Of a DNA stretch of 64,000 nt, positions 26,094-26,899 are shown in pieces (the first letter of the stretch is position 1; each line of letters starts with the position of its first letter). A program made the translations under genes and the position numbers. Under the pieces are notes generated by a model. It was not told the origin of the DNA. It was given only the letters and a program-made list of their open reading frames with translations, and ran no database searches. This DNA is from Escherichia coli (GTDB taxonomy: Bacteria; Pseudomonadota; Gammaproteobacteria; Enterobacterales; Enterobacteriaceae), in assembly GCF_045037415.1 (NCBI RefSeq), contig NZ_CP173438.1; one strand, given 5' to 3'.

Positions 26094-26444
26094 TTATTCC
26101 ACCACCGCCTGCAAGCGTAATAACGCCTCTTCCACCACCTCATCCGCAGCCAGACCAATACGCTTTGCCAGCCGGGCGCGTAGATCCATCATCCGCACCT
26201 GATTCACCAGCACCACGCCGTGCACATCGCCTTCTTCGCAATGTAAAGGAACGCTAAATCCGGCATAACGGGCAAAATTTCCGCCCTGCGTAATGGGGGC
26301 CACCAGCGTCATTCCCAGTTGATTAAAGGCTTGAACGGAGAGCACAAGCGCAGGTCGACCAGCACCTTGCTGTTCATGGCCGCTTGCTGGATCAAAGCCA
26401 ACCAGCACAATGTCTCCCCGTTCAAATTCACTTTTCTTTACCAT
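26094..26444 (-). CDS. chpB: mRNA interferase toxin ChpB (MazF paralog)
   Basis: ORF track 116 aa; PemK/MazF fold; start overlaps chpS stop. Confidence 0.92.
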   Translation of the reverse strand: MVKKSEFERGDIVLVGFDPASGHEQQGAGRPALVLSVQAFNQLGMTLVAPITQGGNFARYAGFSVPLHCEEGDVHGVVLVNQVRMMDLRARLAKRIGLAADEVVEEALLRLQAVVE

Positions 26445-26668
26445 ATTTCGTCACCCGCAGGGGTGGATTTACCCCAGACATCCTGCTCGCTAAGTTCCGC
26501 GGCGTTCATGTCACACTGTGCCAGCAGTTCATCAAGCGAGTAGCGCCTGGAGATGGGTGTCAGAATCAGTTGATTGTTGCTCACTTGCGCCTCCACGCTC
26601 TGCCCCGGCTGTAAGTTAAGTTCTTTCATTACGATATTGGGAATGACCATACCTGCACTGTTCCCCAT
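26438..26668 (-). CDS. chpS: Antitoxin ChpS (MazE paralog); open frame begins at an internal ATG, canonical SD-ATG is out of frame (see findings)
   Basis: ORF track 76 aa starting MGNSAGMV; an AGGAGG-linked ATG at ~26686-26688 encodes MRITIKRW in another frame. Confidence 0.7.
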   Translation of the reverse strand: MGNSAGMVIPNIVMKELNLQPGQSVEAQVSNNQLILTPISRRYSLDELLAQCDMNAAELSEQDVWGKSTPAGDEIW

Positions 26669-26899
26669 CTTTTTATGGTAATACGCATCTGCACCTCCTT
26701 AAGTTATACAAAGTATAACTCACGGTGCTACAGGAAACGTTTTACCCCTGCGCATTTGTGAACGCCAGCAGAGTTTTTTATGCGTTAACAGATATGGAAA
26801 GCGGCTCGGAGAGAAAAGCAAAGGGTGAGGGAATTACAAAACAGAATGCGAGTCGTCTCGCAAAAAACAACGCCACCCGAAGGTGGCGTATGCATATGG

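Follow-up and report, generated by a model that had tools for sequence, protein, structure and literature searches.

The 64,000-nucleotide stretch of Escherichia coli DNA analyzed here (contig NZ_CP173438.1, hereafter the window) carries the genes of the toxin-antitoxin (TA) module ChpSB, a textbook and well-known system, and in the sequence as given the reading frame of the antitoxin gene chpS is broken at codon 9 by the loss of one G. We consider it likely that the homopolymer was undercalled by one base when the genome was assembled, and that the genome itself has a normal chpSB operon. The original prediction, made from the sequence alone, had offered a sequencing error and a genuinely crippled antitoxin as the two explanations. 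This was the correct pair of alternatives, and the weight has now moved toward the artefact. All chpS and chpB coordinates given below are window positions, and both genes are located on the minus strand.

The Shine-Dalgarno (SD) sequence AGGAGG of chpS (26699-26694) is separated by 5 nt from the native start codon ATG (26688-26686), for which an anti-SD pairing energy of -13.4 kcal/mol was obtained. When the minus strand is read from there (AAGGAGGTGCAG-ATG-CGT-ATT-ACC-ATA-AAA-AGA-TGG-GGA-ACA-GTG), no uninterrupted chpS open reading frame (ORF) results. Instead, the SD-linked ATG opens a remnant of 19 codons, MRITIKRWGTVQVWSFPIS, followed by the stop codon TAA at 26631-26629, and this out-of-frame remnant occupies positions 26629 to 26688. 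The body of the gene is covered by a 76-aa ORF (MGNSAGMV...GDEIW, 26438 to 26668), which starts at an internal ATG at 26668 that has no ribosome-binding site (anti-SD pairing of +0.3 kcal/mol). The entire chpS pseudogene as given spans positions 26438 to 26688 and has a length of 251 nt as compared to the normal 252 nt. The site of the one-base deficit is a run of four Gs at 26663 to 26666 (G4 instead of G5; C4 on the plus strand), and a run of five As (A5, 26670 to 26674), which is intact in the window, is located three bases upstream of it. The locus had been described in this way before, with MRITIKRW encoded from the SD-linked ATG out of frame with the gene body and with a poorly initiated 76-aa ORF, and all coordinates could be verified on the minus strand.

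The lesion is best seen in comparison with strain 4/1-1 (NZ_CP023844.1), to which the window can be aligned end to end over 64 kb with a total of three differences. These are a one-base gap at 26663-26666 (C4 versus C5 on the plus strand) and single nucleotide polymorphisms (SNPs) at 49582 and 56321. At the level of individual bases, the gap in the chpS G run is the sole indel between the two sequences, in agreement with the one-base loss that had been proposed for this run. Insertion of one G into chpS of the window leads exactly to the 83-aa public protein CHPS_ECOLI, which is present on at least 1,000 contigs in the public collection. K-12 ChpS had been described correctly in the original prediction as a protein of 83 aa starting with MRITIKRWGNSAGMV. 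The 76-aa ORF corresponds to residues 8-83 of K-12 ChpS with 100% identity, except that W8 is replaced by Met. A reference ChpS that genuinely starts with MGNSAGMV, which would speak against a lesion, was looked for; no public protein begins in this way, and the exact 76-aa sequence is missing among about 15 billion proteins. For a 21-aa remnant there is likewise no record among public proteins.

In the restored ChpS, the Pfam domain PF04014 (MazE_antitoxin) spans residues 5-49. ChpS residues 4-83 can be aligned with residues 5-82 of MazE from the MazE-MazF system (PDB 1UB4, 1MVF; E about 1e-6), the KRWGNS strand included. The identity is low, and the comparison is used here only for the roles of the lost N-terminal strand and the kept C-terminal tail. 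As the alignment with MazE starts at residue 4 and PF04014 covers residues 5-49, the frameshift takes away the start of the fold. A complete MazE_antitoxin domain with its first strand KRWGNS is not present, since the 76-aa ORF is devoid of residues 1-7 and has the start Met in place of W8. The cognate toxin gene, the PemK-family chpB, follows directly downstream and is intact, as had been stated before. It is an ORF of 116 aa (26444-26094), the ATG of which overlaps the chpS stop codon (ATATGGTAA). The chpB region of the window is identical to that of strain 4/1-1, where the product is WP_000239579.1, and PF02452 is recorded on the ChpB product in related loci. When compared to the type II TA system ChpS-ChpB (chpBI-chpBK) of E. 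coli K-12, the window therefore has the same chromosomal order, ytfP - chpS - chpB - ppa, the ChpB protein of normal strains, and the same chpS coding sequence minus one G, but differs in that the chpS frame is broken at codon 9.

The frequency of the four-G allele was assessed in 5,426 complete RefSeq E. coli genomes, in 4,709 of which the chpS locus is present, using a 40-mer able to seed on the four-G allele only. The k-mer pair for the two run-length states in this lineage is ATAAAAAGATGGGGAACAGTG versus ATAAAAAGATGGGGGAACAGTG. Only one of the 5,426 genomes was matched, NZ_CM142692.1, a blood isolate from Bangkok; all other complete E. coli genomes with the locus have G5. The frequency of G4 in curated complete genomes is thus at most about 1 in 4,700. 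As the four-G 40-mer is missing in 4,708 of the 4,709 genomes carrying the locus, the chpS lesion is specific and does not stem from a chance pattern. In NZ_CM142692.1, the identical 251-nt allele is labeled 'chpS, frameshifted' by the annotation pipeline PGAP. The G4 40-mer had no match in the GTDB species representatives. There was also none in the JGI metagenomes, but the G5 control was found on just four contigs there, so that this search has no power. The adjacent run is never shortened to A4 in the 5,426 complete genomes.

These numbers bear directly on the idea of a deliberate switch, which would operate either by phase variation of chpS at the G run or by programmed recoding, and which we regard as very improbable. 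The run is close to the start of the gene, an arrangement also seen in contingency loci, and according to the translation a -1 slip of Lys-tRNA on A5 would restore the ChpS frame. For example, a -1 ribosomal slip on A-AAA-A (26670-26674) would yield MRITIKKMGNSAG..., an 83-aa near-native protein. Five bases are short for a phase-variable tract, however, and the tract lengths are not both common, since among the 5,426 genomes there is one with G4 and not a single one with A4. These population frequencies led us to reject both phase variation and programmed frameshifting. Furthermore, recoding is not required for expression of the normal gene, so that selection had nothing to build, neither an X-XXY-YYZ heptamer nor a placed stimulator is present, and the conserved KRWGNS motif would be left without its W8.

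The genome of the window is not part of the RefSeq complete set, as is evident from the SNP at 56321. At this intergenic position between rplI and a HipB-like gene the window has A, which creates CTGCAG, and 4/1-1 and NZ_CM142692.1 have G; the 41-mer surrounding the A has no match among the 5,426 genomes. The two G4 sequences, the window and NZ_CM142692.1, differ by four SNPs, and the window is without the IS1 insertion, the two one-base deletions and two SNPs of NZ_CM142692.1. That the window might be NZ_CM142692.1 itself was rejected on these grounds, together with the absence of its 56321 allele from all 5,426 genomes. The private lesions of NZ_CM142692.1 (contig records L003 and L004; window-equivalent positions 36081, 39284 and ~45890) comprise two further one-base deletions inside the same 64 kb, namely a change from A5 to A4 in ytfJ, marked 'frameshifted' by PGAP, and a single deleted C adjoining cpdB, as well as an IS1A insertion that splits a TetR/AcrR regulator gene. 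The deletions suggest that NZ_CM142692.1 is an unpolished long-read assembly.

The second SNP is informative with respect to the relationship of the two G4 genomes. At 49582, within an acyl-CoA:acetate/3-ketoacid CoA-transferase gene, the window has the ancestral A, for which exact matches exist in 1,783 genomes, and the derived G is common to 4/1-1 and NZ_CM142692.1. The shared derived G places the window outside a sub-clade formed by 4/1-1 and NZ_CM142692.1. Thus, the two G4 genomes do not form a clade, and G4 was not inherited from a common ancestor. The G4 allele is homoplasic, having arisen twice even within the lineage of the window.

Frameshifted alleles in other public assemblies were found via a 70-aa gene call (MVIPNIV...), and the longest contigs, all of them from NCBI assemblies, were read at this site. 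Two of these (L009 and L010) are A5-G5 and hence normal, with an old misannotation of the start and with 0 and 3 gaps, respectively, against the 4/1-1 reference. A5-G4 was found in L016, which has 10 deletions in 3.2 kb, every one of them in runs of 4-7 bases, and in L013 with 17 gaps; in L011, with 35 gaps, the base is lost from the G run as well. In L007, L012 and L015 the preceding run is short (A4-G5), accompanied by 17, 7 and 9 gaps, respectively; homopolymer deletions make up most of these gaps and, in L012 and L015, every one. L008 and L014 are A5-G4 with no other homopolymer indel. Outside the RefSeq complete set, G4 occurs independently on five or more backgrounds that are unrelated, mainly in assemblies rich in homopolymer deletions. 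The same miscount recurs as G4 in NZ_CM142692.1, L011, L013 and L016 and as A4 in L007, L012 and L015, all of which have further one-base deletions, and the change at the chpS G run of the window is also one of a single base within a homopolymer. L012, L015 and L016 belong to the lineage of the window (1-3 mismatches to 4/1-1), yet the short run differs among them, which is the signature of stochastic long-read undercalling. The chpS site AAAAAGATGGGGG is a demonstrated recurrent site of long-read undercalls and miscalls.

That L008 and L014 might form a single lineage in which a real G4 was passed on was also considered, and this was rejected because they are 23 SNPs apart in 3.2 kb. The background of L014 is also that of L007, in which the run is G5, and thus G4 is not inherited there. 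Two public chpS products, P0026 and P0027, have, in addition to a 5' frameshift, a second one in a different G run close to the 3' end. Each G4 case with informative surrounding sequence is an artefact. A miscall caused by a methylation motif was rejected, as neither a GATC nor a CCWGG motif extends into the run.

For the window itself, the most likely explanation is that its G4 has the same cause as that seen in the error-rich assemblies. In this case the true sequence would be GATGGGGGAAC, giving a normal 83-aa ChpS. The artefact is favored because G4 recurs in error-rich long-read assemblies and is nearly absent from curated complete genomes, and because selection should act against a true chpS null allele that is accompanied by an intact chpB. 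In line with this, chpS is on the Keio list of essential genes because chpB is present, and sequencing mistakes are a named cause of 'missing' essential genes (PMC5992433). With the known long-read homopolymer undercalls that generate false 'frameshifted' pseudogenes the window shares the one-base deletion in a run of five. It differs from them in that a second such error is absent from its 64 kb.

Several observations weigh against an undercall. Apart from the G run, all 233 homopolymers of at least 5 bases in the window (63 of them of at least 6 bases) agree with 4/1-1, and no further homopolymer miscount was found in the 64 kb. The noisy assemblies L012, L015 and L016 fail at their longest runs first, and an error in a run of only five bases would be unusual if the assembly were based on short reads or well polished. 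The G4 carriers L008 and L014 are locally clean, too. Finally, real disruption of chpS with chpB intact exists. In two draft genomes (GCA_013173265.1, L020, and GCA_013174555.1, L021) chpS is cut by IS1 near codon 17 and the chpB ORF is intact, as in the window; positions 1-60 of both contigs contain a 56-nt IS1 terminus, 100% identical to the IS1A of NZ_CM142692.1, joined to chpS. Roughly, the artefact and a real mutation each require a rare event, at most about 1 in 5,000 genomes.

The real mutation would be a genuine, recent and strain-private slippage from G5 to G4 that frameshifts chpS at codon 9, in a cell that survives with both partners weakened. We regard this as possible but rather doubtful. 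Homopolymers are true slippage hot-spots, no other indel was found in the window across its 64 kb and 233 homopolymers, and the private SNP at 56321 attests to a private branch on which the mutation could have arisen. Translation started from the strong SD would end at 26629, some 185 nt short of chpB, and the coupling to ChpB synthesis would largely be lost. At the same time a truncated ChpS from an internal start may keep the C-terminal toxin-binding tail. Two such forms have been proposed: a 63-aa protein made by reinitiation at TAATG (26627 to 26631), where the stop codon of the remnant directly overlaps the in-frame ATG of ChpS Met21, and a 70-aa protein from the ATG at 26650 (ChpS Met14), which is preceded by a weak SD (-5.5 kcal/mol). 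MazE wraps the toxin with its C-terminal half, as in the structure 1UB4 of MazE-MazF, and uses its N-terminal barrel for DNA binding. By analogy, the truncated ChpS would retain the toxin-wrapping half but lose strand 1 of the MazE/AbrB fold, which would lead to poor dimerization and DNA binding and to a loss of operon autorepression.

A more specific version, which we consider improbable, holds that if G4 is real, termination at TAATG would be followed by a restart at Met21, and the resulting 63-aa ChpS would be deficient in DNA binding and still neutralize ChpB, a natural 'split' of the neutralizing and the repressor function. The TAATG overlap has arisen by chance but is of the classical type for termination-reinitiation, which it could support; no Pfam hit is recorded for the 63-aa product. 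As regards a real mutation in general, no G4 instance could be linked to short-read data, the allele is found in at most about 1 in 4,700 curated complete genomes, and assembly error demonstrably makes the identical change elsewhere. The IS1 alleles arise by insertion and also separate chpB from the operon promoter, unlike the frameshift in the window, and therefore do not demonstrate that a frameshift is tolerated. In addition, the Keio strain background did not permit deletion of chpS (PMC5992433). Overall, we thus prefer an assembly undercall as the origin of the four-G run.

Public gene calls of 63 aa are found at contig edges or in chimeric contigs of the Logan collection, at a scaffold gap of Ns in L017, or next to IS1, and none of them informs on the G run. 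In the Logan contigs L018, L019, L022 and L023, unrelated sequence is joined to chpS just upstream of Met21, the partner in L018 being an acetyl-CoA synthetase gene. Such joins probably stem from mixed samples, as chimeras of the assembly graph. The contigs that carry them account for most public '63-aa ChpS' calls.

A further TA-related lesion is present elsewhere in the window (region 54226-55987). Here, a HipA-family toxin gene on the minus strand is split into two overlapping ORFs of 168 aa (54987-55493) and 253 aa (54226-54987), and an intact gene for a helix-turn-helix (HipB-like) protein (55496-55987) lies upstream of it. PGAP marks the HipA-family gene as 'frameshifted' in both NZ_CM142692.1 and 4/1-1, with a length of 1,268 nt in each. 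The occurrence of the same 1,268-nt frameshifted gene in both relatives points to a pseudogene at the level of the lineage, in contrast to chpS, and the HipA-family pseudogene is probably genuine.

The biological importance of the chpS lesion is low under either outcome, and RefSeq already lists the identical allele as a pseudogene. An artefact would be a minor warning about the quality of the source assembly, and miscalls of AAAAAGATGGGGG in chpS yield false antitoxin pseudogenes when TA genes are surveyed. A real mutation would represent one more strain-private pseudogenization of a well-known, dispensable TA module, and the strain would offer a natural test of whether ChpB harms cells without full-length ChpS.
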